From Rhynchopus sp. YZ270_cl-10 (lineage: Eukaryota), in NCBI GenBank assembly GCA_964035575.1, contig OZ037835.1, positions 1,364,001-1,428,000 on the forward strand: 64,000 bases of DNA, written 5' to 3'. The position numbers were made by a program, and so were the translations under genes. Of this stretch, positions 3,288 to 55,140 are shown one piece after another (within the stretch, counting starts at the first letter, position 1; every line of letters begins with the position of its first letter). The notes under the pieces were generated by a model. It was not told the origin of the DNA, searched no databases, and worked only from the letters and a program-made list of their open reading frames with translations.

Positions 3288-4865
3288 GGTTGCTTTGTTA
3301 TTTCATTGGTCCTGGGCTGGACCTTAAATTGCATCCGGGGGTCTGTTCCTCCTGAAACTCTATGAAGGTGTTGACCGCTCGAACCAATGTCTCCTACCTG
3401 AGAGATTACAAAACAGGAGGCGAGGAGGGGTATGCGGGGGCGTTTTTGTGCCTTCAGGGTCTTTTCATTTTTCAGCTACCCTGCCTCTCCTTTATCACCA
3501 ATGCACAGCCTTTGTCTTTCTGTTGGGGTATGTAGACCATCGTGCAAGCGTTGGGTGCAGCGAACTGCAGTACCTGTACGCTCACAACTCTTCAACGAAG
3601 GTGGGGTGAGCGAAAAGTGACTGAGTGTGAGGGATGCGTTCAAGAATTAAACTCTTCCCCCCAAACCCTTTCGTCTCTGTTTTTCTTTATCCAAACGGCA
3701 AGTGGATGCGTAATCATTTTGGTTTTGAAAAAGTCGGGCCCCTGGCCCCGAATTAGCGACACCCTTGTGATATATAACTCAACATAAAGCATCTGTTTTA
3801 TGCTCCTTTCTACACCCTTTCTTCAGTAAAACGAAACAGGGCTAGATATAGCTCAACAAAAAGATTCTGCTCTTTTGTCTCTCTTTCTTTCTACACCCTT
3901 TTTACACTAACAAACACCGATGGGGAAAAACTAAGGTATATTTTGGAATTTTAAAACTCCAAGGAAGGTTTTTACCCCCACCGATGTTTGTTGCATTACT
4001 GTAACTGTTTTTTTTCCTGCCAGAAACCTATTCCAATGGACACTAATTAAGAGCACTTGGCAAACCCGCGTTACCTTTTTTTTGGGGGTAAAAAATTGCT
4101 ATTTTTGCCACTTTCGACACTTTATTCATATAACGGGCCTGAAAATAAATCCTCAGGTTCCCGACACTTTTGGGGGTGTGAATGTGTTCTTAATTAGTGT
4201 ACATCAATTTATTGATTGCATATGATGAAATTACTCAATTAGTGACCACTGTGACACATGTCTCTGAAGCGTTTCCACGCCTAATGTATTATTTGCTCCT
4301 TGCTCTGCCGGCAAGCGGTGTTGTCATAGTTGTTTGTTACACACGAAAGAAAGGTTTTGTTAATAGTGTTGTTCTTACTGACGCAGTTTGAGTCTTGCCA
4401 CACCGTCACCTTGAAGTGCAACGGTGTCCACCTCTAGCACGAAAGTGTCTAGTGTCGGTAAGTTGATTTTTTTGTTGCGTGCTCACGTACGTAACGATAT
4501 TTTGATTTTTTGGGGGAAAATAGGGAAAAAAAATAAAAACAAAAATAGGTCATTTTGTTGCAAATTTTTGTATTTTTTTTTCGGAAGTGGCCTCGCAGAA
4601 ATCCTGTGAAAAATCACCTGATTTGCTTTTCCGGACTTATTCTGGGATGACGATCCTACCACACTGGGGTCACTTCGGAAAGATGGTTATTACAGACAAC
4701 CCAATAGTATGCCCTGTTCAGACATAATCCACACGGGGACTAGCGAGGGGTCTACAACGTCACGCCATCAATTATTCAAAAAACACTAATTTGCCCCTGG
4801 GAAAAAAACACTAATTTTACCCACACACACATTCAGATAGATGTTGCCTCCTCACCCTGTCTTCA

Positions 4866-9221: not shown

Positions 9222-10089
9222 AAAATAAAATGAAGTTTCATCATTGTATTAGCCCAGGGAGGGTTCCCGGCTACCGATTAAAACGGATGAGACCTGAAGT
9301 TTATATTTACCCTCCCTTTTTCGTGCGCCTCATTTATGTACTTCAGGAAAGCGGATGTTTCAGACTTCCATTTCTGGGCTGTTTGGGGTCAATTTGTTGC
9401 CAGTCCTCGGCACTTCTTTTACGTATCGACGTTTCTTCGCATTGGGTTTGGTGCTTATTTATCAATGCAACAATCACTTGCTGCGTACTCTGTTAGTTTA
9501 TTCGAAACACCATCTTGGGAGGCTTTGGAAGGCCTTCCTGTGTGCCAAAGTCATGCAACGTGCCTGCCCCAACTCTAAGTGTACAAATATTGGACGAAAA
9601 GTCCGAACTGGTCCAGAATTTCAAAAAGGTGCACTTGAGTACGGTACACATATTTTCCGATTTTAGAGCTTTCCCAAAAGTCCGTGCTCAAGTACGCGCC
9701 ACTTTCCTTTGGTACCTATATTGGATGGTTCAGCATTTGTAATGTTATGCTTAATGAATAAGAATAGGTCAGAGTCTTGTATGACTTGAAGTCTGGAACC
9801 CTTCGCACCTCGTGCCAAGAGTGAAAAGGCTTTAGTGTGTGTGTTATGTACTTGCCTACTTGCAACGGATAGGAGCAAGAAACCACATCTGTGCAATGCC
9901 GCGTTGTGGAGTGCTTCTTTCAGTGTTCGATGCACGCAAAGATGTACTACCTGGATCGGCATGCTCACTGATGGTGTGTGCAGGCGATGTGCTGCACACA
10001 GCCGCCTGCACTATTGCCAGCAGAGCAAGACTGATACACAAAACAGAATCTTTTTGCAAGAAAACTAAAGCATCTGCACCCCCCCCCCT

Positions 10090-10761
10090 TAGGGGCGGTC
10101 ATATCCTGTATTAAAAGTGTGAGAAAATGACATTTTTCAAAATGTTGTCAAAAGCGATTCTAAGGTAAAAAAAAGTAGAAAATCCACCCCACAGGCCCAA
10201 AAAAATGTGGTGTGCCCCGCTTTCCACCCTTTTTGTGCCTCTCAGGTACCCAAATCACAGTTTTTTAAAAATTGCCTACCACTGGTACCTGAGTGCCCCC
10301 CTGGTTTGCCCTTCAGGTTGACTATGGAACAGAAAACACCCCAATATGGCTCAGAACATAGAGCAAAGGGTATATTTCACCCCCAAAACCCCACAGGAGA
10401 CCCACAAAACCGTTACTGGGGTGTTTCGTGACACCTGTTGGTGCTCAAAGCTCATAAAACCTGAAACACCGGTCAGGCAGTGAAAATAGGCCAAAACAGG
10501 CCAAAATAGCCTGAAAATGGCCTAAAAACGCCCATATTTTATTTCAACCTACCCACAAATTGCCTGCCTCAGGTACCACTGGTAGGCAATTTTTTAAAAA
10601 CCGCGATTTGGGTACCTGAGAGGCACAAAAAGGGTGGAAAGCGGGGCACACCACATTTTTTTGGGCCTGTGGGGTGGATTTTCTTGGTTTTTACCCTTTT
10701 TGTGGGGTTTTTGGGCATTTTTGAAAAATGTCATTTTCTCACATAGATATGACCCCCCCTA
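10090..10761. mobile_element. Foldback/MITE with ~200-bp imperfect TIRs, TA-flanked, inside a poly-C tract
   Basis: Termini TA-GGGGCGGTCATATC…GATATGACCCCCCC-TA; 10179-10292 is the near-perfect reverse complement of 10568-10682. Confidence 0.8.
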
Positions 10762-11184
10762 ACCCCCCCCCCCTTTTCCCCACATCAGTGCTCATATCCT
10801 GAAGACCCCACCGCCGTCAGCATGACTCCAGCTACGACACAGGGAGTCATTCAGTACTGAAGGTTTTGCTTTTGCCTGCATTTCAACCAAGAAAAAGAAA
10901 GGCCACTTGTTGTCGTATCTCAAAGACTTTCTCATATGATGAACGACGTGACGTGCATTGTGTGCTGTGCCCACATGGACGCATCTGCATTGTGTATTCC
11001 TGCAAAGTGCTCTTCCCACAAACCCCCACGTGGAGGTGTCATGTGGTTGTGTGTGACGTATCCGTGCATTCCGTTCCCTCAGAGGGTGTGTTGCATGTGT
11101 GTTCTTCGTCCTCTCTCGTCACCCACAACCTCTGCACAAAAAGAAACCAACACAAAAGACACAGCAACAACACACAAACACACA

Positions 11185-12585
11185 ATGCCGAAGCGACACG
11201 CAGACAGCACGCAGGACGAGAACCCACGAAAGAGAAGACAGCTTTCTGCAGACGAGGTCTTGATGGAGGCTGCCAGGAACGGCGACACGACTGCCGTGCG
11301 GGCGGTCCTTGAGAAGTTCAACCCAGACAGAAAGAAAGTGGCCTTCGATGCTGCGCACGAGGCATGCAGAGGGACCCACGATGAATGCCTCGCACTGCTT
11401 CTTCCGTATGTTGAGACAACGCAGATGGGGTTTGGGATGCTGCTGAGTGAGTGTGTCCACGCAGACCACGTTGCGTGCACGGAGGTCCTCTTGCAGCATT
11501 GGAAGTCAGTCTGCAACAACGTGGCGTTTGTCCCGCACGATGCCGACCACAGCGCAGGTCAGCCAGGGATAGCCTGTCCGGCCATGTGGTCAGACCCTGC
11601 AGTGTGTCGTGTCTTGATTGATGCAGGGGCAGACTTACATACAAGAAACAAGAAGCGACTTTCACCTTTCTATCGACATACAAAAGGCGAGGACGGATGT
11701 TCGCCTCTGCACTATGCTTGCAAAAAAAGAGCACTTGACGTTGTGAAGATGTTGGTTGAAGCAGGTGCGGGAGTGCGTGACACAACTGACGAAGGGTGCA
11801 CGTGTCTTAGCCTTGCGGCAGAACTTGGACACACGGAGACTGTGCGCTATCTTGTGGGCTTGCCAGAGGTGGAACTGAATCACCGAGATGTTGACAACCA
11901 CACTGCGTTGTACTTAGGGGTTCACAACAAGCACACAGACGTGGTGCGGGTGTTGATTGATGCAGGTGCAGACCTCGACGCAAGGAACAACGACGAAAGT
12001 TCGCCTTTGCATCATGCTTGTCAATCAGAAGCGCTTGACATTGTGAAGATATTGGTCAGAGCAGGTGCGGAAGTGAATGCCACTGAAGACGAATACTACA
12101 CGTGTTTTGATTATGCGGTATTTTATGGATACACCGAGACTGTTCGCTATCTTGTGGGCTTGCCAGAGGTGGATGTGAATCAACGAGGGGCGTACGACCG
12201 CACTGCGTTGGAGCACGCTTTTTATTTTGACGATGTGAAAACAGACGTGGTGCAGGTGCTGATTGATGCAGGTGCATACATCGACGAACAGAACGACGAG
12301 GGACGTTCGCCTCTGCACTTTGCTTGCGATTCAGGAGCACTTGACGTTGTGAAGATGTTGGTCAGAGCAGGTGCAGGAGTGCGTGTCACGGACAATGATG
12401 GGTGCACGTGTCTTATCCTTGCGGCACGTCGTGGACACACCGAGACTGTGCGCTATCTTGTGGGCTTGCCAGAGGTGGATGTGAATCACCGAGACACTGA
12501 AAAGAACTACACTGCGTTGCAGCATGCGGTGGAGGAAAATCACACAGACGTTGCACAGGTGCTGAATTGTCTACTTGCAGCTTGA
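11185..12585 (+). CDS. Ankyrin-repeat protein (solo paralogue of the tandem array), NLS-like PRKRR at N-terminus
   Basis: Repeated SPLHxACxxxALDVVKMLVxAGA / TCLxLAAxxGHTETVRYLVGLPEVDVN / TALxxA…DVVQVLIDAGAD motifs. Start placed at the MPKRHAD ATG shared by all seven paralogues. Confidence 0.9.
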   Translation: MPKRHADSTQDENPRKRRQLSADEVLMEAARNGDTTAVRAVLEKFNPDRKKVAFDAAHEACRGTHDECLALLLPYVETTQMGFGMLLSECVHADHVACTEVLLQHWKSVCNNVAFVPHDADHSAGQPGIACPAMWSDPAVCRVLIDAGADLHTRNKKRLSPFYRHTKGEDGCSPLHYACKKRALDVVKMLVEAGAGVRDTTDEGCTCLSLAAELGHTETVRYLVGLPEVELNHRDVDNHTALYLGVHNKHTDVVRVLIDAGADLDARNNDESSPLHHACQSEALDIVKILVRAGAEVNATEDEYYTCFDYAVFYGYTETVRYLVGLPEVDVNQRGAYDRTALEHAFYFDDVKTDVVQVLIDAGAYIDEQNDEGRSPLHFACDSGALDVVKMLVRAGAGVRVTDNDGCTCLILAARRGHTETVRYLVGLPEVDVNHRDTEKNYTALQHAVEENHTDVAQVLNCLLAA

Positions 12586-13036: not shown

Positions 13037-16000
13037 ATGTCTCTGAACGATTCCAAATGGAACCCATCCCAACAAGACGACACTCTGTACGGCGGGTTTG
13101 CTGCAGGGGGTGATGCAGGGAAGGCTGCTGGTGGTGGGTTTACGGAGCCCCCTTCCTCTCATGGAATGCAAGCGGGGAATGATTGGAGCGCTCCCGCCGC
13201 TTCTGCTGCACCACCACCTTCAGGAAACAACTGGGGACGTGCCCCCGGAACTCAACAGGGCTCCGTTTTAAAGTCAATGGATGCGCGACCAATGACGTCC
13301 AACCGGGCTTCGGGGTTTCAAGCTACTACACGGTTAGGGACCGGCGCTGCGCCTCCTGGGTTTGATCCGTTTAATCAACAGAGTTCTAGTGCTTTGTCTC
13401 CTTCGCTTCCGCTTCAAAAGCGGTCGGACAATTCTCCCGAGGAGCAGTGTCTGGAGGCAGAGAAGAAGGTGAACGCATTGATAGAGGAGAGTGCGATGCT
13501 TGCGTTGCATAAGGACCATGCGTTGGCGTTGCAGAAGGCGATTGAGGCAGGGAAGCGGGAGAGGTGGCTGTGCAAGGAGCGTGAGAAGCTGGGGCTCGCA
13601 GAACAGATCAACATTGACCTGACGTACTCGGTGCACTTCAACCTTGCCGTACAGTACCACAACAGCCAATGCTATTCGGAAGCCATCAATACATACACCC
13701 TCATCGTCCGCAACAAGCAGTATGCGCAAAGTGGCAGGCTCCGTGTAAACATGGGGAACATTTATTACGAGCAGGGCAAGTACACCTTTGCGCTGAAGAT
13801 GTACAAGTCTGCTCTCGAGGTCGTCCCTACAACAGGAAAAGAGCTGCGCTTCAAAATCCAGCGCAACATGGCCAACACATACGTCAGGATGGGTATGGAA
13901 AAAAATGTCGATTTTTTTTTGAAATAATTTTACCTAGTCGCATACTGCGAATTTTCCTGGATGCGCAGGAAAAAAAATGACTGGGGAGTGTTGGTGGCTC
14001 CGCGACGCCACAGAGCCGGCACACTCGGTGAGTGCCTCACAAAACATCAAAATACTTCTTATTTGCTTTTATTTGTTGTCTTCACGCTTTATCTTTGTTG
14101 GGAAATAAAACTTCGAAACACACAACATCACGGAGGACTGGTCATGGTCATGACCAGCACTTTGAATAAGAGGTCCGTATTTCAAGCCTGGTAGGTCGAA
14201 GGTCGCTATGCCTCCCTACTACTAAACGAAATCAGAACACCAACAGCTCCAAACCTGCCAGTTTTTGGCATTTTTAATACAGGGCATTTACTACAGGTGT
14301 ATTAATTTCAACCTGCACACAGCTATACCAAACTTTTCATTGTACTAAACCCACACTCCCTACCTCCCCTAACCCCCTCTATGGACATCGTGCCTGAAAC
14401 TGTAGAAGTTAACTTCTATTTTATCAAAAACAAAAAAATAAACTACCCCCTCTGTAGGTCAATACCAAGACGCGATCAACCACTACGAAAGCATCATGAA
14501 GGACGCACCTGATATGCAGACAGGATTCAACCTGCTGCTGTCGTACTACATCCTGCGCGACAAGGACCGCATGAAGCGGCAATTCGTGAAGCTCCTGCAG
14601 ATCAAGACCAACGCTGACAACGACGATGACGATGATGAAGATGACGACGAGGCTGCCGAAGGCTCCCCCGAAAAGCAGGTCCTCGCCGACGACGGCCTCC
14701 TCACAGACCTCCGCGTACGGCGCAAACTGCACACCCAATGCATACTCACAGCAGGCCGGCTCATCGCCCCCGTTGTGGAAGCAGATTGGGAGCAAGGATT
14801 CGCCTTTATCGTAACCTCCCTTAAGCAAAGCCGTGTCAGTGAGTTGAAGCAACCCAACTCACGTCTCGCGTCTGAGCTAGAAATGTGTTGTGCGCTACAG
14901 TATTTGAAGCACCAACAATATGGGAAGGCTATAGACGGGTTGAAGGCATTTGAGAAGAAGGACCGAACGTTGAAGGCGAGGGCTGCGTGTAATCTGTCGT
15001 ATTTATGCTATCTTGAAGGCGACTACGCTAATGGCGAGCAGTACGCTGATATGTCCATCGACGCAGACAAGTACAACGCAAGCGCCTTAGTAAACAAAGG
15101 CAACTTCCTCTTCAAAAAGGGTGAGTTTGACAGATCAAAGCAGTGCTTTTTGGAGGCCCTTTCTGTAGAAGCGGACTGTGTAGAGGCCATCTACAACCTT
15201 GGCCTCGCAACAAAGGCGTTGCACCAGTACGAGGAGAGTCTGAAGGTGTTCAAGCGTCTGCAAACCATGATCGATTCCGTAGAAGTGACCTACCAGCTGG
15301 GTAACATCTACGATTTGCTAGGGCGATCAGACATGGCGGCGGAGTGGCTCCGCAAGGCTCCAACGGATCCAGCAATCTTCGCACGTCTTGCAAACATATA
15401 CGTCAAAGAGGATGACGAAAGCCAAGCATTCCACTACAACTTAGAAGCACACAGGTATACTTGAAAAAAAAAATTTGCTTTTTTTAGTGACACATAGTGT
15501 GGAAGCGAACAACAAACAAACCTTTATTTTTCAATAATGGTGTGATTCAGGGGGTACGGACAACCCACGGGGGAACCACGGAGAACTGTTTCGGGCTATA
15601 TCTCCTTGATTCATACAGTCAGTTATCCACCGAACCGTCGTATGGGTTAAAAAACCCTCTCAGTTTTGAATTGCACTATCAACTTCACTTTGAAATCCCC
15701 AACCTACATTTTTCCCCCACCGGTTGTATGACTGTATGATAATTTTCTTTTAGCGACAGAACGTCACTACCACCACTACAGATACCTGCCTGTGTGCATG
15801 GATGTGATCAACTGGCTTGGTGCGTACTTCGTGCGTAACGAAGTATACGAAAAGGCAATGAAGTACTTCGAGCGGGCCGCGCAGATCGAGCCGAAGGAGG
15901 TTAAGTGGCGTCTGCTGGTCGCGAGCTGCTACCGCCGTATTGGGGCCTTCCCTAAGGCGAAGCAGATGTATGAGGAGATCCACAGGGCGCACCCAAACAA

Positions 16001-17779
16001 CATCGAGTGTCCGCGCTACCTGCTGCACCTCTGCAAGGAGATGGGGCTGACAGAGGAGGCAGTCGTGTATCATAAGGTATGTTTTGTTAAAACAACTTGT
16101 TGTCAAAAAGATTGGAGGCAGCGTGGGCAAACAAAACGGATTGGAAAAAAAAAAAAACAGAAGCTTGCTTGTTTTCTTTACTCAATTAACCACAACAACC
16201 GCACTTTAGTTTAACACATTTTTTCATCTTTTTTTGTTTTCCGGCTTTGAGCGCACAAACAAAAGACCCGATTTTTTTTATTTTAGTGAACGCAAAATCG
16301 TATTTGGCAAAAAAAAAAAAAAAAAGTTTGAGCCCCTTCATGGAATTGAAAACCACACTGATTTTGTGCTGTACTTTTTATTTGCAAAAAACAAAGGATT
16401 TTTTAAAAAGAGGAGACGACGCTGATGGACAAAACTCCATCTTTCGATCTGAAAATATTATCTTAATCACTTTTTTTTGTGTTCCGCCAAATCATGCCTC
16501 AAACAGGAGGATTTTGTGCAAACCAACGACACACCTTACCCCCCTACTATTTCCTACTATTTTTCCACACACAATACCATAGGTTCTTGCCAAGCTCGAG
16601 AGGAGGACAGGGGCGACTCCTGTTGCGGACGAAGGGGGTGCGGCACTTGCGATGCAGCCGTCCCATACTGGGGGTACAGGGGACAACACGTATGCTCCTG
16701 TGTCGCAGGCATCTGGGGCACCAGCGCCGCTGAACTCACGTCACGCAGCACAGCTGGCAGCAGTGGAGGCAGAGAAGGAGCGGGTATGCACACACCTCAT
16801 CCACCCGTCCTTTATCATACACAGTGTTTTTGGCACCCTTCTTATTAGGGGTAAGGACAGTCTGGTAGGAATATCTCAACTTACAAAGTACTACAATGCA
16901 ATATAATACAAAACAAGAGAAGCAAAAACAAAAACAAAACAAAAACAAAAACAAACAAAACTTTCAAAACCCCCAGGTTTGGGGTGCTCAGAGGTACTTT
17001 TTTGCAGCTCGAGTCAAGAAAAATCACGAAAAATCACAACGGTTACAAACGGTTACAAATCGTTACAAATGCTTACAAAAACGAAATTGTGATTTTGTTT
17101 GGTTTTTTTGTGAGCGTCCGTGAATTTTTGTGATTATCTGTGATTTTTTGTGATTTTTTGTGATTTTTTGTGATTTTTTGTGATTTTTTGTGATTCGCAT
17201 TCCCGATTTTGTGATTTTTCGTGATTTTTTGTGATTATCTGTGATTATCTGTGATTTTTTGTGATTTTCTGTGATTTTCTGTGATTTTTTGTGATTCGCA
17301 TTCTAGATTTTGTGATTTTTTGTGATTTTTCATGATTCTTTGTGACTGGAGCTGCAAAAAAGTACCTCTGATCACCCCAAGGTTTGACTTTTTGGACAGT
17401 TCAGAACCACAGCGTTTACGATAAAGACAGTTCAGAACCACGCTATGTGGTTCTGAACTGTCCAAAACGCAAACCTTGTGCATGTTTTTAAATAGTAATC
17501 TCTACATTGGTGGCATCGGGAGAGACCAAATTCCCCTGGTATTTCTCCCAAACTTCTAGGGGGGGAACCAGAAAATTCTTACACCAAATTGGTTCCGATC
17601 CACACCAATGTAACCTTTTAAGTGATTTCTTTAGCCAGAGCTCTGGCTCTATGTGTCTTCACATTACCGTTCAAATGATCCAATACCTACAGGACGCCCT
17701 TCAGCCTGAAGCCACCCCTAAGCGTGCGAAGGAGGACGACGATGTGTCGCTGGATGATGAAGACCTGCCGGGGATGTAG
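13037..17779 (+). CDS. IFT88: Intraflagellar transport protein 88 (TPR protein), 5 exons: 13037-13892, 14458-15454, 15782-16076, 16583-16783, 17693-17779
   Basis: Recognisable IFT88 motifs (SPEEQ…EKKVNALIEES, QINIDLTYSVHFNLA, GRLRVNMGNIYY, YNASALVNKGN, DCVEAIYNLGL, VINWLGAYFV, VKWRLLVASCYRRIG). All four introns are GT-AG and join in frame (MG|QYQDAI, EAHR|YLPV, YHK|VLAKLE, EKER|DALQ). Confidence 0.95.
16981..17378. mobile_element. MITE in IFT88 intron 4 with internal TGTGATTTTT repeats
   Basis: TIR GGGGTGCTCAGAGGTACTTTTTTGCAGCTC / GAGCTGCAAAAAAGTACCTCTGATCACCCC; flanks caggttt / aaggttt (7-bp TSD, 1 mismatch). Confidence 0.8.
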
Positions 17780-18925
17780 ACTGCAGGCTTTCCAGCTGGG
17801 GGGTGAGGAAGTACTTTGGGGTTGTCATTTTTGCGCCAGAGGCACCTTCAGTTGCACCTTCAACTCTTTCATCCTCCCACCTCTTTGAATCAAGGTGACT
17901 AAGCTCGAGAGGATTGGGATCATCTTACAAACTTTCTTTCTTTCCCCAAGACATAAAATAACCACGTAGAAGCTTCCGCTACTTCGTTTTTCTTTTTTTT
18001 TAAAATCATTCTTTTCCCGGTAAAGCGTGGCCATTTGTGAATACAGTGCATTGTGTTTTACGGATTTTATAAAGAATAACTGCTGCTATCCCATGATAGT
18101 AGTCTAAAATAAAACAAAAGAAAAAATCTGGTAAACAACGTGGCCATTTGTTGAGTGATCTCTGGACGGGGAGTGATTTTTTTTTTAGCTCTCAGTCGCG
18201 TCTCACAGTCTCTCTCACACAGCCTGTTTTGTGTGTCTCACGGAGACGATCATGGACCACCCAATTTTGCAGACAACTACATGCGCCGCAATACAGTGCT
18301 TTGTCACTCCTCGCAGCATGCTGTTTGCTACCTATATTGCATTGCATGTCTATCTACGTACGTTGTGGCCCAAACCCCTCTTCAAGGCTCTTGTTTCGCC
18401 TCCCCCTCGTTCCCCATTAAGCCTTTTTCACCTTTCGCTATTTCTCATGCCCCCCCATCTCCCTCGCCCACCACGTTACCCCTTTTTTTTTGGACTTCTG
18501 TTCGGAAAAAAAATCCTTTCCACCCAACACTAAGCCTACCTTAAAGTGCATACGATCTTATTTTTGCATTTTTGAAATTCACCCCCAACCCTCCCCTCTC
18601 CCCTTCGCCCTCCCCCCCTTTTGATTTCAACCTCTTCACAACGTGTTCCAGAGGAACCTGCCAAGTGAAATTACTTAAAAATGAGAAGTGAAAATGACAT
18701 GTAAATCATTTGTCATAGCAAAATGTTTCCTTTGGGGGAGTAGGTGGGATGAGCCTACAGGCATTCTTTAAATTGCCATGATAATAAGTGACCACTTTGT
18801 CATCACTTTCACTTTGTCATGACGTGAAATTGGTCCTGGACCACGTCGATGTTCCCTACAACAATTTCCTCCCCCCTCCCCCTCCTCCCCCCCTCCACAC
18901 AACCCCAGCATTTCCTTTTGACATC

Positions 18926-20713: not shown

Positions 20714-21699
20714 ACCCGTCAGTGTAAGGTAAAGGGGGCAAGTGTTTGCCTGTAGAAACTGGAAGGGAACAGGCAGCGCCGCAGGCGCGCGGTAACCAAC
20801 TTTTTTTTTTTTTTCCTATTCTTTTTTCTCCTCTTTCTTTTGACTTTCCGAGCCAATTGCGTTCCACGGCGGGGTCACATGTACATGCAAGTCCACTATG
20901 TGGTGGTCTTACTCAACAATATTAGAACTTCTGGTTTCTTAATGAAATCCCCGTACTGCAAAAAAAAAACGTTCCTACCAAAACCCCCAAAAATCCCGGG
21001 ATGAGGGATGGACTTTAGCGCGAGCCCTGGTGCCGCCGCAGGCGGCTTTTTTTTTTTCCAAACCATCCCAAAAAGGCTGTTTTTCGACGATTTGACACTC
21101 GATCTTTTCATATATTTTTTTTACGGTCACTTTAGTCACCAAACTTACCCCCTAAGTAGCCTGCGGCCTTCGTGCAAATAAAGGGGGGGAACCAGTACTT
21201 TTTCTTCGTGCAAATAAAGGGGGGGAACTCATTTTCAAAAATGTCGGGAGAAAGGAGGCGATTTAGCTTTTGGCCTGGATGGAGAGCGTGTAGTTTTTTT
21301 TTTTTAGGTGATTACACACAGAGAGGCTGAGTTAAAGGCTTTTAAAGTTCATCGTATAAACAGTTCTCTTTTATTATATTTAGCAGCGGCAGAGGAGCCG
21401 CTGAAGGGTTGTGTACCGCCCTCGTTCTCTTACGGTGCAGGTAATTCATTAGGTTTCCTTTTTAGATCTACTGTTGTAGGCCGCAGGGTGCTTTGTGCTT
21501 TCATCCGGATGGCTGGCATGGGTGGGTCAGTCAGAGGTGCATCAACAACAGTTTGTCAACTACAGTTTATTTTTGTTTCTTGATATTCGCGTGGATGTTG
21601 TTTGTTATTATAGGCTAGTTGACGTCACGGACATTTGGGTTTGGGAGGGTTTGAGAGGATTTGGGCAGATTTGGGGGGGTTTGAGAGGGTTAGTAAGGG

Positions 21700-24158: not shown

Positions 24159-25358
24159 TAGGGGATACGACTCCAGCCATTTTGGCTGGGACCAAACGCA
24201 CGGAAAATTCATTTGGCATTATCTGGCCATCTCCAAGGCAACTGCGGGTGAAAAACACCTCAGAGTGGGTCACAGGGGGCCTGTGGGTCGAAAAACGACC
24301 CAGAAGCCACCCCAGAATACAAAAAAATGGAAAAAAATAGTGAAAAAACGGCTTTTTTCACGTTTTGGCCACTTTGGGCAAAATAGCGATTTTTCGAGAA
24401 AAAAATCAAAAACCGGGATATTTTTTGACATCACAAAGCCTCCTTTGGCACAAATATACCCCAAAAGTGGCCTGTGAGTCCATTCCAACCTGTTTTGGAC
24501 ATATTTGACACTTTTGGAAGTGTTTTTTTGGTGTTTTTAGGTCAAAAAAATGCCCAAGACGTCCCCAAGACATCCCCAAGACACTTTGCACACCCCCTGT
24601 TACGGTCATATTTTTTTCGTTTTTTTGCCTGAAACCCCCAAAATACCCCTCCCGGACCCCACATAGTCCCGAATATCCATCACACACCCACTCAGAGTGA
24701 GTAGAAGCACCCCAAAAAAAATATTTTTTAAAGCCCTAAAATTGTGCTTCAGTTTCGGCAGCATCCATGTTGAAGTTGAAGGGCTTTAAAAAATATTTTT
24801 TTTGGGGTGCTTCTACTCACTCTGAGTGGGTGTGTGATGGATATTCGGGACTATGTGGGGTCCGGGAGGGGTATTTTGGGGGTTTCAGGCAAAAAAACGA
24901 AAAAAATATGACCGTAACAGGGGGTGTGCAAAGTGTCTTGGGGATGTCTTGGGGACGTCTTGGGCATTTTTTTGACCTAAAAACACCAAAAAAACACTTC
25001 CAAAAGTGTCAAATATGTCCAAAACAGGTTGGAATGGACTCACAGGCCACTTTTGGGGTATATTTGTGCCAAAGGAGGCTTTGTGATGTCAAAAAATATC
25101 CCGGTTTTTGATTTTTTTCTCGAAAAATCGCTATTTTGCCCAAAGTGGCCAAAACGTGAAAAAAGCCGTTTTTTCACTATTTTTTTCCATTTTTTTGTAT
25201 TCTGGGGTGGCTTCTGGGTCGTTTTTCGACCCACAGGCCCCCTGTGACCCACTCTGAGGTGTTTTTCACCCGCAGTTGCCTTGGAGATGGCCAGATAATG
25301 CCAAATGAATTTTCCGTGCGTTTGGTCCCAGCCAAAATGGCTGGAGTCGTATCCCCTA
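24159..25358. mobile_element. 1.2-kb near-perfect palindrome (foldback element), ~580-bp arms, 42-bp spacer (24738-24779), TA-flanked inside poly-C
   Basis: 24159-24737 is the reverse complement of 24780-25358; ends TA-GGGGATACG…CGTATCCCC-TA with C-runs on both sides. Confidence 0.9.
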
Positions 25359-31267: not shown

Positions 31268-33788
31268 GGGGAAACGACAATGTGGACTCTAAAAATGTGG
31301 ATTACGACAATGTGGATTAATAATCCACATTGTCGCATAATCCACATTGTCGTAATCCACATTGTCGCAAAAAATAATCCACATTGTCGCATAATCCGGA
31401 TTCTTGATTTTTTGCCTTCTTGGTACCCAGGTACCCAGGTACCCAGGTACCCAGGTACCCAGGTACCCAGGTACCCAGGTACCCAGGTACCCAGGTACCC
31501 AGGTACCCAGGTACCCAGGTACCCAGGCACCCAGGTACCCAGGTACCCAGGTACCCAGGTACCCAGGTACCCAGGTACCCAGGTACCCAGGTACCCAGGT
31601 ACCCAGGTACCCAGGTACCCAGGTACCCAGGTACCCAGGTACCCAGGTACCCAGGTACCCAGGTACCCAGGTACCCAGGTACCCAGGTACCCAGGTACCC
31701 AGGTACCCAGGTACCCAGGTACCCAGGTACCCAGGTACCCAGGTACCCAGGTACCCAGGTACCCAGGTACCCAGGTACCCAGGTACCCAGGTACCCAGGT
31801 ACCCAGGTACCCAGGTACCCAGGTACCAGGTCCAGGTCCAGGTACCCAGGAACAGGAAAAAAGTCGTGAAAGAGCAACCACAGCTCCACATGACAAACAC
31901 AAAAGTGTCCAGTCACGTGGGGCATTCATGCACTGAGGAGATAATGATCCAACAATTTACAAGAAAGATTACTTAACCTACTGCTGGAAATTGCCAGGTC
32001 GTAGTAACACACAAAGTGTGCCTCCGTTCGGGAAGACCGGATATTCTAGAGACCAAAAAGGCCTCAAGAATATCTTCCGGTAGTCAAGGTAGAACCGAGT
32101 GAACGGCCCAAGACCCCCGTGGAGAAGTTAAATGTTGTAATGCTATCAGGTAGAAACTGCGAACACTGTCTTACCCTCCTCAATGCATGGTGGTTGATGT
32201 CTTCCACAACAAATTTCCTGTACCCAGGTACCCAGGTTCCCAGACCCACGCAGTACCACGTCGCAGTACTACGCAAAATTTACCACCAGACCCTGTCTTC
32301 GTGCACCTGAAGTACAACGCCGCAGACAGGCCAAACATGCGTTGGACTCAGAGGAATGCCCGCTGTGCAGGTATCATGAGAACCAACTCCCAGCAACAAG
32401 GGGCGCCTTTTGGCGGGCGTTGTTGAGGGTGTTTGGGGTGCAAAGTTTTCCACAATTTTGATGCGCGGGTACAGAAGTGTTATCTTGTTCTTTCATCTCT
32501 AAGAAATGTAAATGTCAATCGCGTTTAACTACCACTAGGGCTTGTTCAGTGAACCCACGAGGGGTCGAAGGGGGTTGGTTATCCCGTATCTATCAAAGGT
32601 TGTGTCGACCAGGCTAAACCACTATGTTACGCTGTACGTTGTTAAATCCGAAGAAATAACACTTTAGCAGCCGCAGGAAGTTTGCTAAAAAGAGTGCCTC
32701 ACGCTACACAAACCACCACCCGCGATTGACTTAGATGTTATAACAAAGAGAATTCAGAACAAAACAACACCCTGCCCCATACACACTAAATTGTCATACT
32801 TCAAGAGCATGCCTGGGCCAAAATTACTATGACGAAAAGGCAACAAGACCACCCACAAGGAGTGTGAATTGTGCACTGGTTTTCTGGGGGAACAAACAAT
32901 ATTTTCTTGCGTCTAGTCCTCCGTAAGTAGAGGACAGACTTTCCGGAAGGTTTCCAAAGTCGAATTTCTTGCACTAGCTATGCTCCCTGGGTTAATGGCA
33001 ATAGCAGTGACTGCGACAGAGTGTTCCCACCCCCCTTTCTACCCATATGTTCGCTCGTTCTGCACTCTCGACGTTGCACTCATTGCGATACCTGTTTAAA
33101 AGTGAATTTGTGAGTGGTGGGGAAATTAAAGAAGGTGACTTCTTAAAAAAATAAGTTGGCGGGGTGTAAAATATTGTTCTGGAGACTCTTGGAGGAAATA
33201 CGAGTCGACGGCCTTATTTTGTTGAATATTCACCAGAAAGTTAAACATATTTACATACCTTGTCTTGCGCCTTCGCTGCTGTCAAGGTGCCTTCTCTGGG
33301 TACCCAGTAGGAGGCTCAAAACTGCTCAATTCTGGCTGGAATTGCAAAATTGGGCACTTTTAGGATGTGACCAAAAAAATTTTCGAGAGTCTAGTTATTA
33401 CAGAGGCTCACCTTAGAAGGCAAAAATAGTCAATAATCCGGATTACCGACAATAATCCGGATTATGTGACAAGGTGGATTACTGGTGTTTTGGTGGAAAA
33501 AACCCGCAAAAACGCGTTTTAGACCCCCAGAGAGGCTCAAAACTGCTCAATTCTGGCTTTAATTGCAAAATTGGGCACTTTTAGGATGCGACCAAAAAAA
33601 TTTTCGAGAGTCTAGTTATTACAGAGGCTCACCTTAGAAGGCAAAAAATCAAGAATCCGGATTATGCGACAATGTGGATTATTTTTTGCGACAATGTGGA
33701 TTACGACAATGTGGATTATGCGACAATGTGGATTATTAATCCACATTGTCGTAATCCACATTTTTAGAGTCCACATTGTCGTTTCCCC
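31268..33788. mobile_element. Non-autonomous TIR element A (~150-bp TIRs built of ATCCACATTGTCG subrepeats) carrying a (CCAGGTAC)n array and shared cargo
   Basis: 31268-31420 is the reverse complement of 33636-33788; poly-T on both flanks; internal ~115-bp direct repeat at ~33311 and ~33533. Confidence 0.85.
31422..31850. repeat. (CCAGGTAC)n 8-bp satellite; also at 44141-44463 and, inverted, 47422-47661
   Basis: Directly visible. Confidence 0.97.
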
Positions 33789-44020: not shown

Positions 44021-45462
44021 GGGTAAATTGCGATAACACGTATACTTTTTTTTTCGATTTGCGATAACACGTACACAAAAAGTATACGTGTTATCGCGAA
44101 AAAGTGTACGTGTTTTCGCAAACAAAAACGTACGTGTTTTCCCAGGTACCCAGGTACCCAGGTACCCAGGTACCCAGGTACCCAGGTACCCAGGTACCCA
44201 GGTACCCAGGTACCCAGGTACCCAGGTACCCAGGTACCCAGGTACCCAGGTACCCAGGTACCCAGGTACCCAGGTACCCAGGTACCCAGGTACCCAGGTA
44301 CCCAGGTACCCAGGTACCCAGGTACCCAGGTACCCAGGTACCCAGGTACCCAGGTACCCAGGTACCCAGGTACCCAGGTACCCAGGTACCCAGGTACCCA
44401 GGTACCCAGGTACCCAGGTACCCAGGTACCCAGGTACCCAGGTACCCAGGTACCCAGGTACCTGGTTTGTCAAGGAAACCAAACTTTTTGTCACGGAAAA
44501 AGTCGTGACAGGGCACTGGGTACTGGGTACACTGTGTACAAGGATAAAAGTCGTGAAAGAGCAACCACAGCTCCACATGACAAACACAAAAGTGTCCAGT
44601 CACGTGGGGCATTCATGCACTGAGGAGATAATGATCCAACAATTTACAAGAAAGATTACTTAACCTACTGCTGGAAGTTGCCAGGTCGTAGTAACACACA
44701 AAGTGTGCCTCCGTTCGGGAATACCGGATATTCTAGAGACCAAAAAGGCCTCTTCCGCTAGTCAAGGTATAACCGAATGAACGGCCCAAGACCCCCGTGG
44801 AGAAGTTAAATGTTGTAATGCTATCAAGTACAAACTGCGACCACTGTCTTACCCTCCTCAATGCATGGTGGAAGATGTCTTTGACAACAAATATCCTGTA
44901 CCCAGGTACCCATATTCCCAGACCCACGCAGTACCACGTCGCAGTACTACGCAAAATTTACCACCAGACCCTGTCTTCGTGCACCTTAAGTACGTAAGTC
45001 TGGTTCCCAGACCCACGCAGTGGCACATGACCGCAAGTGTGAGTGACCCACAGAGGGATACGCAAAATTTACCACCAGACCCTGTCTTCTGAATGTCACA
45101 CGTACATTTTTTTGAACACTTTTCGCGATAACACGTACATATTTCGCTAAAAAACGGGGTGCTCGCAACCGCGTTCTAGACCCCTACAGATGCTCAAAAG
45201 TGCCAAATTTTGCTTTGAATGGCCTCAAATCGTCGAAATTAGCCATTTTTGGGGCCCAAAAAAAAAAATTCGAGGGTCTAGGTATGGAGAGCGAGCACCT
45301 TAGAAGAAGGAAACACGTACATTTTTGTTCGCGATAACACGTATACTTTTTTGACCACTTTTCGCGATAACACGTACACTTTTTCGCGATAACACGTATA
45401 CTTTTTGTGTACGTGTTATCGCAAATGGAAACAAAAAGTATACGTGTTATCGCAATTTGCCC
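44021..45462. mobile_element. Non-autonomous TIR element B (GCGATAACACGTA subrepeats), apparent 9-bp TSD AAAATAAAA (Mutator-like)
   Basis: gggtaaattgcgataacacgtatacttttt / aaaaagtatacgtgttatcgcaatttgccc; carries the CCAGGTAC array and part of the element A cargo. Confidence 0.8.
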
Positions 45463-45705: not shown

Positions 45706-47856
45706 GGGAAAATGACTATAACACCCATGTTACTAATACCCATTTACGATAATACCCACTGGGTATTATCGTAAACTTTTTGGGTATTATCGTAAAGTTT
45801 TTGGGTATTATCGTAAACTATTTGGGTATTAGTTTTGGGTATTATCGTAAACTTTTTGGGTATTACCCAGGTACCCAGGTACGATGTGATTTAGCTGGCT
45901 ACTCGCGCAAGGTATCAGAGGCGCTCGCACGCTGGTGAATGTGCAGACAAGGTATGGTTTCATCGACCCCAGAGAAAATACAATTTTCACTAAATATATG
46001 GGGGGGGGTTTTTTTTTACACAACTTTTTGCATCCCTGTCTTACATCCTCAAATTCAGGGTAACCATTTTTCTTGACAATTAACAATTAATCTTTCTCCA
46101 AGCGACATAACTTAATTACACCCACATTTACACTCATCACAGGATCGCGAAATCTGAACTGCATCAGCGATTGCGCTTCTCCGTCTCCGACATTCTACAC
46201 CTCAACATACGAAGACCTGGGTGGGAACATTTAGTCAGTCACTGCTATAGCCATTAACCCAGGGAGCATAGCTAGTGCAAGAAATTCGACTTTGGCAACC
46301 TTCCGGAAAGTCTGTCCTCTGCTCGCGGAGGACTAGACACAAGAAAATATTGCGTTCCCCCAGAAAACCAGTGCACATTTCACACTCCTTGTGGGTGGTC
46401 TTGTTGCCTTTTCGTCATAGTAATTTTGGCCCAGGCATGTTCTTGAAGCATGACAATTTAGTGTGTATGGGGCAGGGTGTTGTTTTGTTCTGAATTCTCT
46501 TTGTTATAACATCTAAGTCAATCGCGGGTGGTGGTTTGTGTAGCGTGAGGCACTCTTTTTAGCAAACTTCCTGCGGCTGCTAAAGTGTTATTTCTTCGGA
46601 TTTAACAACGTACAGCGTAACATAGTGGTTTCGCCTGGTCGACACAACCTTTGATAGATATGGGATAACCAACCCCCTTCGACCCCTTGTGGGTTCACTG
46701 AACAAGCCCTAGTGGTAGTTAAACGCGATTGACATTTACATTCCTAGAGATGAAAGAACAAGACAACACTTCTGTACCCGCGCATCAAAATTGTGGAAAA
46801 CTTTGCACCCCAAACACCCTCAACAACGCCCGCCAAAAGGCGCCCCTTGTTGCTGGGAGTTGGTTCTCATGATACCTGCACAGCGGGCATTCCTCTGAGT
46901 CCAACGCATGTTTGGCCTGTCTGCGGCGTTGTACTTAAGGTGCACGAAGACAGGGTCTGGTGGTAAATTTTGCGTAGTACTGCGACGTGGTACTGCGTGG
47001 GTCTGGGAATATGGGTACCTGGGTACAGGATATTGGTTGTGTAAGACATCTTCCACCATGCATTGAGGAGGGTAAGACAGTGTTCGCAGTTTCTACCTGA
47101 TAGCATTACAACATTTAACTTCTCCACGGGGGTCTTGGGCCGTTCACTCGGTTCTACCTTGACTACCGGAAGATATTCTTGAGGCCTTTTTGGTCTCTAG
47201 AATATCCGGTCTTCCCGAACGGAGGCACACTTTGTGTGTTACTACGACCTGGCAATTTCCAGCAGTAGGTTAAGTAATCTTTCTTGTAAATTGTTGGATC
47301 ATTATCTCCTCAGTGCATGAATGCCCCATGTGACTGGACACTTTTGTGTTTGTCATGTGGAGCTGTGGTTGCTCTTTCACGACTTTTTTCCTGTTCCTGG
47401 GTACCTGTTCCTGGACCTGGACCTGGGTACCTGGGTACCTGGGTACCTGGGTACCTGGGTACCTGGGTACCTGGGTACCTGGGTACCTGGGTACCTGGGT
47501 ACCTGGGTACCTGGGTACCTGGGTACCTGGGTACCTGGGTACCTGGGTACCTGGGTACCTGGGTACCTGGGTACCTGGGTACCTGGGTACCTGGGTACCT
47601 GGGTACCTGGGTACCTGGGTGCCTGGGTGCCTGGGTGCCTGGGTGCCTGGGTGCCTGGGTACTACCCAACCTGGGTAATACCCAAAAAGTTTACGATAAT
47701 ACCCAAAAAGTTTACGATAATACCCAAAACTAATACCCAAAAAGTTTACGATAATACCCAAAAAGTTTACGATAATACCCAAAAAGTTTACGATAATACC
47801 CAGTGGGTATTATCGTAAATGGGTATTAGTAACGTGGGTGTTATGATAATTACCCC
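45706..47856. mobile_element. Non-autonomous TIR element C (TTTACGATAATACCCA subrepeats), cargo inverted relative to element A
   Basis: Inverted termini of ~170 bp with poly-T flanks; ~46238-47400 is the reverse complement of ~31850-33012. Confidence 0.8.
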
Positions 47857-51284: not shown

Positions 51285-52150
51285 AAGGTGCACAGGACGA
51301 GAGGCTTTCATCTTGCAATGTTTTCTGCCGCAACACATCTGGAAATGAATGCCTTCTTCGATGTCCTGTTTCCCCTTCCCCCCTTTTGTACCCCACCTGT
51401 CCACCATACTTCAGGACACGTGTTTTCGGTGTTTTTTGGGTCTGGTTTGGGTTTGTGGTTTGGGAAAAAACGGAGACTTATTTGGCTGGGAAAAGACATC
51501 ATCCCTGACAACACACTTGTGGAATCCCACGCAGCTGATGCTGTGCGATAACGGATGTGATCAAAGTGACTAAGCACAGACAGGCTCAGGGTCTTCTTGT
51601 GCACTTTTTCTTGTTTGCAGTACTGTATTTCTGTTTTATGACTCATTTTACACAGGATGGTACTCTGCAAAAAGTACATGAATTCCTGATGAAAAATGAA
51701 AATGTAACTGTGTCCCGTCTTTCCGGATATCGCTATCAAGACATGTAATGTTATATGGAACTATAGTATTCCATGTACCTCCCATTGCTTCGCCATCGTG
51801 CAAACACCCGAATCCGTGCATGAGCATGCTCGAGGCTTTAAAAAAAAAGAAACTCTTGTTTATTTCCCCCACACCTCCTCACCTTCTCCACATCACCATC
51901 ACCCTCCGTTACCTATGATACAGAGCGACACAAATATGGATTTGACTATCAGGGGGTTGAACGGAGTGAAGGATACGGTGGAGCTGGGTGAGGATGACAC
52001 ACTTGCGGTGATGCGGCGGAAGGTGGCGACTGCAGTGGGGTTGCCTGAAGACGGCTTTTGCATGAGTTTCGGATGTGAACCGATTGGAGCAGGAGCGGAC
52101 ATGACGCAGCTGAGCGCTGGTGATACAATCATCCTCACGAAGACTCAGAA

Positions 52151-52224
52151 GGGGGCAATTAACGTCTGACCAACCGCCAAGTGGGGCCCCTGGACGCCGT
52201 GTTCGCATGGTACTGAGTCAGCGT
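52151..52224 (+). ncRNA. HDV-like self-cleaving ribozyme (predicted)
   Basis: P1 GGGGGC(52151-56)/GCCCCT(52186-91) with leading G-U; P2 ACG[T]CTGA(52162-69)/TCAGCGT(52218-24); P3 CCA/TGG; L3 ACCGCCAAG with CC pairing GG(52192-93) as P1.1; P4 GCCGTG-TTCG-CATGGT; J4/2 A-C(52213)-TGAG. Folded by eye. Confidence 0.75.
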
Positions 52225-53785
52225 GGGCGGCCGCCTCTCCAATGATGGATTCGCTCGGGACCGGAGGAGGAACAAGCCGATGTGGGAACCCTGGTTATTA
52301 ATACAACATCACAGTCAATTTCGGGCAGATCACCAGCTTATGTAGGCTACGCAAACCCCTTCGGAGGGGTTTCAAGGATCTGTTACCTGTGCGGTGACTG
52401 GGAGTGTGTTGATGCCGATGAGGGGATCCCAGGTACAAGAAGGAAGCGTTGCCGGTGTCTCTACTGGTGACGGAATATTGTTGCTGTTCCTGTGTTGTCG
52501 TTTGACCGCATGGGAACGTTGTGTTGCTTTGTTGGTGCGTACACTGCATGTGAAACAACTGTGGATCAGCAGGTACGTGCTCTTGTGTATTCAGTGTGGT
52601 GTGTTGTAGTTTTGTTCAGTTCAGTTCAGTTTTCATCTTTTTGCCGTAGTAGAATTCTTGTGTTATGTGTTTAACCTCAGGCTGTGTACACCGTAGTGAA
52701 ACATCTGTGGATCTGCAGGTGCGTGCTCTGTCGTTAATTCAGTGTGGCATGTTGTAGTTTTTGGTCTGTTTTTACGTTTTTGATACGTTAGTAGAAGAAG
52801 GGATCTGCGAACATTCATTCGCAGGTGGGTACAAGTTGTCGCCGTGGCATTCAGCTACGGTGCAGAAGAAGTAGTAGGGCAGACCAACGTCTGTGCTAGA
52901 AGGAAGAGGTTAAACTTTCAGGGTGTATGCACTCTGCAGGTACATGCTCTGTTGTTTTCCAATGTGTTTGTTTTTGTTCTATTTTCACGTGCTTTGGTAC
53001 GTTGGAGATGAAGGAGTTGTCGCCGTGGCGTCCAGCTACGGTGCAGAAGAGGCAGTAGGGCAGACCAACTACCAAATGTAGGGTCTGTGCTACGCGGAAA
53101 GGCTGGTACTTGAGTTTGTTCACTGTTTGTTGTAACTCCTTCCCTACCGGTACTCCCTTTCTTGTAAGGAAGAAGTTACAACTTTCTCTGTACAAATCAG
53201 GGGAATTTTGTGTGGCCGTCTGCCATATTGTGTGGACATGTTAGCTGACGGTGCTGCTGTTTCTTTTACAACAACACTGCTCTTGCTGTTGATTTTTCTT
53301 TTTCATTTTTACTTTTTATTGTTTCGAAAAACGGAGGTTAATGTTTCCGGTTCGGGCCTGGACTCCGACCCCTACTCTTGCTGACGCGAACGAACGGTCG
53401 TGAACCGTCCCCATTCTCTTACGGTGTGGGCACCGCGGTAACGGTGGCTAGGAAGAAGGGAATCACCCAGAACCACTAATCGCAGCCTGACAGGCACCGA
53501 ACCTCGGGTGAGAATCCCCTCCTGTCAGCCCTGTTCGAAGTACCTATTTTGTTTGACCTTCTTGTCTTTTTGACTTTTTGACTTTTTCTTTTATGCTATC
53601 GAACAGTGCACCCCCAGTAGTGTTGGCATGCATACCTGGGCTGGTCGGCTTGCCGATCTGTTCCAGGGACTGGGGTAAAGTGCCACTAAACGCAGCAGGT
53701 ACCTGTGTTTTTTGGGGGTCTTTTGGTTGGGAAGGCCACAGAAAGAAGGCCCGGCCTGCCAGAGACCGTTAAAACGGACTACCAC
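52151..53785 (+). mobile_element. Non-autonomous non-LTR retroelement-like insertion (~1.63 kb, no long ORF)
   Basis: Direct repeat CCTCACGAAGACTCAGAA(G) at 52133-52151 and 53786-53804; no TIRs; 5' HDV-like fold; 3' hairpin CCGTT-AA-AACGG followed by ACTACCAC. Confidence 0.85.
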
Positions 53786-55140
53786 CCTCACGAAGACTCA
53801 GAAGTACCAAGCCATTGCAGAGCTTCATGCGTTGGGTGTGACCGACATCACAGCCGAGAGGTTGGAGAGTGTGAAGGATCCTGAGGTGGCGTGTTTGCTT
53901 CTGCAGGCGGAGGTTGCGACTGTCATTCCGCATGACTTCTTGTCAGACACTTCGTTGACGAGACTTGATCTCAGTGCTGAGTCCATTGTGACTCGCATTG
54001 GAAACAGCTTCCTATGCAACTGCACCTCGTTGACCAGTATCAATCTCTCTGGGTTGAGCAATGTGACGCAGGTTGGTGAGGGCTTCCTTGCGTTATGCAG
54101 TCGCTTAACGACCCTGGATTTATCGCCACTCAGCAACGTTACGTGGATTCATCACAGCTTTCTTTCCGGCTGCACGAGGTTAACCACCATCGATTTATCA
54201 GCACTCAGCAATGTGACGCACGTTGGCTCATCTTTCCTTTACAACTGCAGCAGCTTAACATCCCTGGATTTATCCGCACTCAGCAATGTGACGTCGATTG
54301 GTTTGAGTAGCATTACTTCTACTACCCGATTTGCTTCGAACTGCACTTCGTTGACGAGCATTTACCTTTCCGGCTGCAGCAGTGTTGTGTCCAACGAAGT
54401 GAGGAAGCGTGAGAAACTGAGTAAGCTTCTGGTTGAAGCACAATGACGGAGTGGAAGGACGTGACATGTCTCGCACAGATGATGTGGAACCCACCTATCC
54501 TACCAGAAGTCCACAAGACTTCAAAAGCGTCCATTTTTTGTACCCAACCACAGAGTCTCCCCGAGACACAGTGAACAGACCACACACCGCAGGACATACA
54601 TCCCCTCGAGAATGCCCTCAAGACACCCCATCCTCAACCCCCTACTTTAGATTTTCCGTTTGGAAGTTCGGATTGCGAATTTATTTTGATCTTTTGCGTC
54701 CTCTGCACCCCTGTCAGACAAAAAGTGCGAATCCTGGAAAAAGTCCTGAATCAAAAGTGACTATCAAGCATGAGAGGGTTTAGGTTTCATCACATAAACG
54801 TTCCTTAGCATTGCCGCATATCTGGGTATGTGGCCACTTAGTGTGGTGGATGGAGACACACCGTGTTGTGGGGTTCTTTTGGGCTGGGGTGCTGAGGCAG
54901 GATTGCATGAGTGGAGACGTGGGTCGGAGACTCGGGTGCAGTGGGTATGCTGCAGTGCACAGTGCTGATGTCCCGCAGTTGTCTCGTCCTTTAGAATCGA
55001 AGGTGGCGAAATAAAGCCTCGGCCGTTTGCATCATTATTTGTTCTGCAATGATGCAAGAACCATCGGAGGGTCGTCACCCACAACCTCTGCACAAAAAGA
55101 AACCAACACAAAAGACACAGCAACAATACACAAACACACA

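Follow-up and report, generated by a model that had tools for sequence, protein, structure and literature searches.

According to a review passage, sequence-specific non-LTR retrotransposons insert into genes for rRNA, spliced-leader RNA, tRNA and snRNA as well as into transposons, microsatellites and telomeres, with no protein-coding target among those listed (PMC4640811). The published hot spots in protein-coding genes that we located are those of the trypanosome RHS and MASP families (PMC7563717, PMC5814959). The RIME/ingi and NARTc/L1Tc systems of the RHS genes comprise non-autonomous elements with an HDV-like head, which occupy one site of a multigene family and divide its members into two halves that yield truncated proteins (PMC7563717, PMC5814959). 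TcTREZO of Trypanosoma cruzi is a site-specific composite non-LTR element found mostly in MASP pseudogenes (PMC5814959). A further comparison is offered by the R2 SIDE, an internally deleted LINE (PMC3414825), and by the CRE clade (SLACS, CZAR, CRE1/2; PMC12278014), of which SLACS-type reverse transcriptases occur in Diplonema (PMC10161547).

Here we describe an element of Rhynchopus that, by analogy, appears to work like RIME/NARTc in RHS genes or like an R2 SIDE. With RIME and NARTc it shares the traits listed above, while it differs in its length of 1.6 kb and in a host that has cis introns, which is atypical for a trypanosomatid. The element departs from the ingi clade in the tests that were run: that clade has poly(A) (PMC12278014) whereas the Rhynchopus element does not, and only 3 of the 11 fixed positions of the upstream target motif of L1Tc/NARTc (PMC7563717, PMC5814959) are matched. 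Compared by description only, Pr77 ribozymes start with C1 (PMC4035085), whereas the predicted ribozyme here starts with a G1.U pair. Like the R2 SIDE, the element has a (predicted) ribozyme head plus a 3′ end, no open reading frame, site specificity and predicted co-transcription with its target; the target is a protein-coding family instead of 28S rDNA, and the duplication spans 18-19 nt instead of the fixed 14 bp of SIDE hybrids (PMC3414825). For TcTREZO, the passage in PMC5814959 mentions no ribozyme. CRE elements resemble ours in a fixed relative target position, target-site duplications of varied size and internal repeat regions, but they encode RT/RLE, target spliced-leader genes and usually carry poly(A) (PMC12278014), none of which applies here: the element sits in a coding linker, not in a spliced-leader RNA gene. 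In a search confined to the open-access literature, neither this element nor any other ribozyme-bearing retroposon that targets an LRR family was found described.

The insertion and its host gene

The window, that is, the whole stretch of 64,000 nt that was analysed, contains a gene for a protein with a ubiquitin-like (Ubl) domain and leucine-rich repeats (LRRs) that is split by an insert. The features of the locus are as follows.

51936..52151, + strand: 5′ half of the host gene, ubiquitin-like domain (frame analysis)
52133..52151, + strand: left target-site duplication (TSD), 19 nt, its last G being also the predicted ribozyme G1 (repeat search)
52152..53785, + strand: non-coding element body, 1,634 nt (frames, run contigs, Pfam)
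53786..53804, + strand: right TSD, 19 nt (repeat search, run contigs)
53805..54446, + strand: 3′ half of the host gene, linker and BspA-type LRRs, PF13306 (Pfam)

The two TSD copies form an exact direct repeat of 19 nt, the only two occurrences of this sequence within the window, and no exact 19-mer repeat of any kind arose in 500 shuffles of the 3-kb region. The duplication measures 18 nt if G52151 is assigned to the ribozyme as its first base. The insert between the copies is single within the window and lies on the same strand as the host gene; deleting it together with one TSD copy (1,653 nt) yields one open Ubl plus BspA-LRR frame. These results bear out the initial annotation, which had proposed a 1.63-kb non-coding insert with an exact 18-19 bp TSD in a Ubl-LRR gene whose frame is restored upon removal. 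Read into the element, the host 5′ half ends in the residues GAINV at a TGA stop (52167-52169), giving a protein of 77 aa. The Ubl half of the window had no Pfam match; PF00240 was found in many of its paralogues. The entire Ubl-LRR cassette (51655-54629) was in turn inserted into one spacer of an ankyrin-gene array: it is absent from four paralogous spacers and shows no evident duplication at its ends.

The longest stop-free frame of the element body spans 114 aa, Pfam gave no match for the 12 of its 33 listed frames that were scanned, and no terminal inverted repeats or long terminal repeats were found in it, in agreement with the earlier description of an insert free of such repeats and of a reverse transcriptase frame. 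On the element, Rfam returned two chance matches by E-value only. The following internal features were recognized.

52151..52224, + strand: predicted HDV-like ribozyme (hand fold; pattern descriptor)
52536..53069, + strand: degenerate T/G-rich internal repeats, the number of units differing among runs (repeat search)
53115..53196, + strand: hairpin with 33-nt arms, 76% complementary (z -2.49)
53487..53528, + strand: hairpin (z -2.0)
53546..53630, + strand: pyrimidine tract, AG at 53605-06 and ATG at 53628 in the LRR frame
53715..53767, + strand: 3′ hairpin module (z -1.73), of which two short copies stand alone within other flanks
53768..53785, + strand: short AC-rich tail without poly(A), of at least two types (run contigs, protein fusions)

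The internal direct repeats noted previously proved real, with one pair at 52834/53015 (55 nt, 93%) and another at 52536/52683 (80 nt, 82.5%). Joints in the run contigs (52616>52784 and 52933>52696) are changes of repeat units and not GT..AG skips. Meanwhile, the proposed hairpins fared unevenly: the one placed at 53488-53528 is there at 53487-53528, and the one placed near 52333 exists but at 52353-52372, where its stability is not above that of shuffles (z -0.46). The hairpin at 53115-53196 had been overlooked. A 3′ CCGTT/AACGG stem is present in the window copy (53766-53777), but the commoner type of 3′ end lacks the GT of its left arm. The frame that leads from the ATG at 53628 into the LRRs is interrupted by a stop at 53676-78 in the window copy. 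Elsewhere in the window, a 35-nt segment (21403-21437) matches element positions 53392-53426 (83%, E 6e-4), a possible relic or a chance match.

A predicted HDV-like ribozyme at the edge of the element

The head of the element (52151-52224) can be folded by hand as a nested double pseudoknot with P1, P2, P3, P1.1 and P4. Its helices agree with those expected of HDV-like ribozymes (a P1 of 6-7 bp and a P2 of at least 5 bp), and its dimensions fall within those of R2 ribozymes (PMC3774820). In this model, P1 pairs 52151-56 with 52186-91, its first pair being G.U; P2 pairs 52166-70 with 52217-21 plus 3 bp; and P3 pairs 52171-73 with 52182-84, with one mismatch. A GG lies at 52192-93 and P4 spans 52196-52211 with a UUCG loop; C52213 would be the candidate catalytic residue and A52216 the constrained A of J4/2. 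Mismatches at the top of P1 and in P3 are both described among R2 ribozymes, while the U.G reverse wobble reported for their L3 is absent, L3 having no U and an ambiguous register (PMC3774820).

A strict HDV descriptor, composed after the sequence had been seen, gave a single match in 128 kb, starting at 52151, with no match in six Markov sequences of 64 kb or in 3,000 shuffles; a loose descriptor matches 2.3% of positions. At the gathering score, Rfam gave no match in the window, and minimum-free-energy folding, which cannot draw pseudoknots, did not recover the ribozyme (z +1.5). The predicted cut site of the fold, between 52150 and 52151, coincides with the edge of the element, which supports the earlier view of it as ribozyme-headed, and we consider it probable that the predicted ribozyme is active.

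Copy number and junctions in sequencing runs

Part of the stretch was contained in 10 of the 15 listed runs, of which five were compared; a run that contains it may be the source sample. None of the containing runs listed was an RNA run, which carries no information about expression. In runs X1 and X2, contigs of the element alone reached depths of 2,300-3,450 against 84-98 for the unique flank, a roughly 25-35-fold excess, to be read as a rough ratio of Logan contig depths and not as a true copy number, as collapsed contigs conceal divergent copies. These contigs are about 98-99% identical to the window copy. By contig depth, the element is multi-copy.

The junctions carry duplications of their own. 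In run X6, a contig leading from the Ubl flank into the element has changes at 52145 and 52146, and the contig leading from the element into the target has the same two changes in its copy of the duplication. The change at 52146 reaches depths of 3,238 in X1 and 2,929 in X2, near that of the element. X2 contains the window-type 3′ junction; because it lacks the window-type base at 52145, both TSD copies were matched in only two cases.

Also in X2, contigs of the window-type end stop at 53784-53785, confirming where the element ends on the 3′ side and revealing that other continuations exist. Of a depth of about 665 for the window-type tail, only 164 leads on into this target (one intermediate depth was derived from bins); therefore, either the specificity is not strict or the tails vary. 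The commoner 3′ end diverges after 53767, and in X1, X2 and X6 it joins the beginning of the same target. X1 and X2 both also contain two single-copy pieces, made up of the final 55-70 nt of the element, within unrelated flanks. As read by hand, one of these short copies is flanked by a duplication of its own (at least 14 nt), which ends in GAC-NN-AGAA before a G run and has 10 of 16 right-aligned bases in common with that of the window, pointing to a purine-rich target. Since this copy lies outside the Ubl-LRR family and has its own duplication, the target preference is strong but not absolute. Pattern scans of metagenomes gave no matches.

The same codon is occupied in many paralogues

A protein search with the LRR half gave 425 homologues, of which 120 were listed, all of them from ENA contigs. 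Uninterrupted paralogues, which had been named as a check, are abundant: among 110 homologues with both halves, 98 have exactly the spacing of the empty site, seven have one additional residue and five have two.

Filled sites leave a trace in the protein collection in the form of gene-caller translations that cross the junction. Of the 31 short proteins homologous to the truncated Ubl half, eight end in GAINV (one being that of the window itself) and two in GGN; two further GAINV endings among nine additional cluster members bring the total to 12 filled Ubl halves. The GAINV or GGN begins directly after LTKT[QKM]K or LTKTQN. Judging from the translations, the GGN ending would be the product of one extra junction base, which in P0126 would need to be a pyrimidine. 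The 12 halves are spread over four contigs, with six of them on a single one. In a partial sample of 162 stored proteins, these 12 compare with 108 intact ones.

The 3′ side tells a similar story. LRR proteins devoid of the Ubl domain, with a foreign N-terminal peptide fused at the same codon, make up nine of the 120 stored homologues, to which P0163 is added. Four of these ten fusions have the 3′ peptide of the window element (two of them aligned); of the other six, two share an alternative tail and four are included by position, so that their assignment relies on position and a short peptide only. The window type of tail also occurs with the other type of target (P0163). One contig holds six 5′ halves, nine 3′ halves and dozens of intact paralogues. 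A region-limited homologue search for extra 3′ fusions, which is no census, gave one candidate. By these junction-crossing translations, the element occupies the same codon in many diverged Ubl-LRR paralogues, which is new and had been overlooked in the initial annotation.

Other breaks were seen in the same family. Six proteins (P0135 and P0138; P0137, P0142 and P0144; P0091) break at a second shared site, equivalent to about 53865. Their foreign tails are shared as well, suggesting that one or two more insertions or frameshifts recur in the family. P0145, P0152 and P0157 have differing foreign tails from the same codon as the element and may represent other families on the same target; when these three tails and that of P0128 were considered as element-derived, their match to the element was unconvincing.

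To place the filled genes, the Ubl domains of 12 filled and 107 empty genes (119 in total) were put on a tree built by a quick search from 66 columns; 18 other truncated proteins and 25 that lack the anchor motif were left out. On this tree, the filled state has to change 11 times, against a shuffle mean of 11.6, and the starred branches force at least six changes. For 10 of the 12 filled halves the nearest neighbour is empty, and their mean identity (0.73) is close to that of the family (0.72). A single clade for the 12 was rejected (p-AU 0.00116). Among ten filled genes, identity between the LRR halves ranges from 52 to 80%, far below the ~98-99% of the element. With the caveat that 66 columns serve 119 rows and that such families recombine, the filled genes appear scattered through the family tree, most likely as independent insertions.

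Origin and proposed mechanism of the insertions

What is established is the structure, the spread of copies, a duplication of its own per insertion and an orientation that is the same as that of the host gene. The element is non-coding, without terminal inverted or long terminal repeats, and exists in multiple independent copies with TSDs and matching empty sites. Because it is multi-copy, with its own duplications, variable junction bases and an HDV-like fold at its edge, we consider it highly probable that it is a non-autonomous non-LTR retroposon, repeatedly copied by a putative partner LINE into one codon of Ubl-LRR genes through target-primed reverse transcription.

Three other explanations are weaker than this one. 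One or few insertions might have been propagated by gene duplication and short-tract conversion, with little repeated transposition. The family is large (425 matches), tandem arrays are common in the window, P0151 and P0161 are sisters, and recombination has been invoked for RHS pseudogenes (PMC7563717, PMC5814959); nevertheless, a single clade is rejected, the hosts are far less alike than the copies of the element, junction bases vary at both ends and a copy found outside the family carries a duplication of its own, which makes this account unlikely. A DNA-level element, be it a DNA transposon of the non-autonomous kind or a circular molecule that a tyrosine recombinase integrates at a shared core, would agree with the fixed site, the constant orientation and the absence of poly(A). 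Such an origin is very unlikely given the absence of terminal inverted repeats, and both repeat copies track the host paralogue instead of a core borne by the element; moreover, VIPER/TATE elements produce no TSD (PMC12278014), and the ribozyme-like head and 5′-shortened copies suggest an RNA step.

The initial annotation had also raised a direct-repeat-flanked non-canonical intron, spliced out to restore the Ubl-LRR protein, a reading that now appears extremely unlikely. Removal of the insert plus one repeat does restore the frame, and Euglena-like introns have been reported, unvalidated, in some diplonemids (PMC10161547); but the frame is restored on removal of any TSD insertion, GT..AG or GC..AG ends occur in none of the 20 registers, the host uses GT-AG introns (IFT88), a self-cleaving head would sever the pre-mRNA, and most paralogues are without the insert in their DNA. 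Internal CAG|GT motifs were also considered as introns and rejected: the six in the 1.6 kb of the element are no enrichment over the 145 counted in 49.5 kb of other sequence.

For the retroposon, we propose that host gene and element would be co-transcribed and that the HDV-like head would free the element RNA by cutting between 52150 and 52151. A putative partner reverse transcriptase/endonuclease would then bind the 3′ end of the element in trans and nick the bottom strand where the duplication begins; cDNA would be primed at this nick, perhaps aided by the resemblance of the AC-rich tail to the target. The top strand would be cut 18-19 nt further, after GAC-NN-AGAA, and second-strand joining would add 0-1 base at the 5′ join. 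In the Ubl-LRR family, the linker codons for T-K-T-[QK]-K would provide the GAC-NN-AGAA motif, which would make this family the hot spot, though it is not the sole target. The early stop would leave a 77-aa Ubl stub, so that the host gene is probably inactivated and likely a pseudogene.

No partner reverse transcriptase was detected by Pfam among the 100 listed frames of the window that were scanned. By analogy, a CRE-like partner would be the best guess, given the long TSDs, the fixed position and the internal repeats. The retroposon reading of the initial annotation, in which a ribozyme-headed, non-autonomous element is mobilised by target priming, is thus retained, but its RTE-type tail is not supported: in RTE-related SINEs (as described for plant families and some animal ones, though not for RTE as a whole) the TSD starts with T about 10 nt after a T stretch (PMC6007223), while here it starts with C with no T stretch upstream, and the stem-loop that had been named is not conserved.

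We also conceived of a more elaborate role, which we regard as quite unlikely, in which retroposons of one lineage, adapted to an LRR family in expansion, would act as a domain-splitting switch. The element would land in the linker, its head would end the Ubl half, and the 3′ pyrimidine tract, AG and in-frame ATG would give LRR proteins without Ubl by trans-splicing; the partner would be an undescribed sequence-specific LINE reading a coding target. Met-His stands first in six of the ten 3′ fusions, which are open into the LRRs, a lead that consists of two residues and a frame match seen from protein only.

Genomic setting of the window

All window ORFs with a clear Pfam match are on the + strand. 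The window contains an IFT88 gene (13037-17900) of at least three exons, with a clean GT-AG intron at 16077-16582; the 3′ ends of its introns are A/C-rich rather than T-rich. Cis introns in a flagellate whose genes run along one strand would agree with a euglenozoan of diplonemid-like type (PMC10161547). An array of intronless ankyrin-repeat genes spans 35577-59376 and 10936-12585, with units that are 85-94% identical. Other repeats include a near-perfect palindrome of 1.2 kb (24159-25358, 97.8%) between C-rich runs, which could be a foldback or MITE-like element, and an inverted repeat pair at 10089-10762 (~205 nt, 84% identical). Between T runs lies a further element (31268-33788), whose terminal inverted repeats of 153 bp match perfectly and which has an 8-nt tandem repeat in its interior, with partial copies at 44141-44993 and 46219-47662 (92-97%).

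Conclusions

The element provides an independent case of a retroposon hot spot in another, intron-bearing lineage, with a different type of ribozyme, tail and target motif. This makes it testable whether such hot spots come from endonuclease specificity or from recombination. The element also points to a putative LINE with an endonuclease that would read a short purine-rich motif and leave TSDs of 18-19 nt. Roughly one in ten of the family members sampled is interrupted, so that the element does contribute to loss, and perhaps also to variation, within this LRR family.
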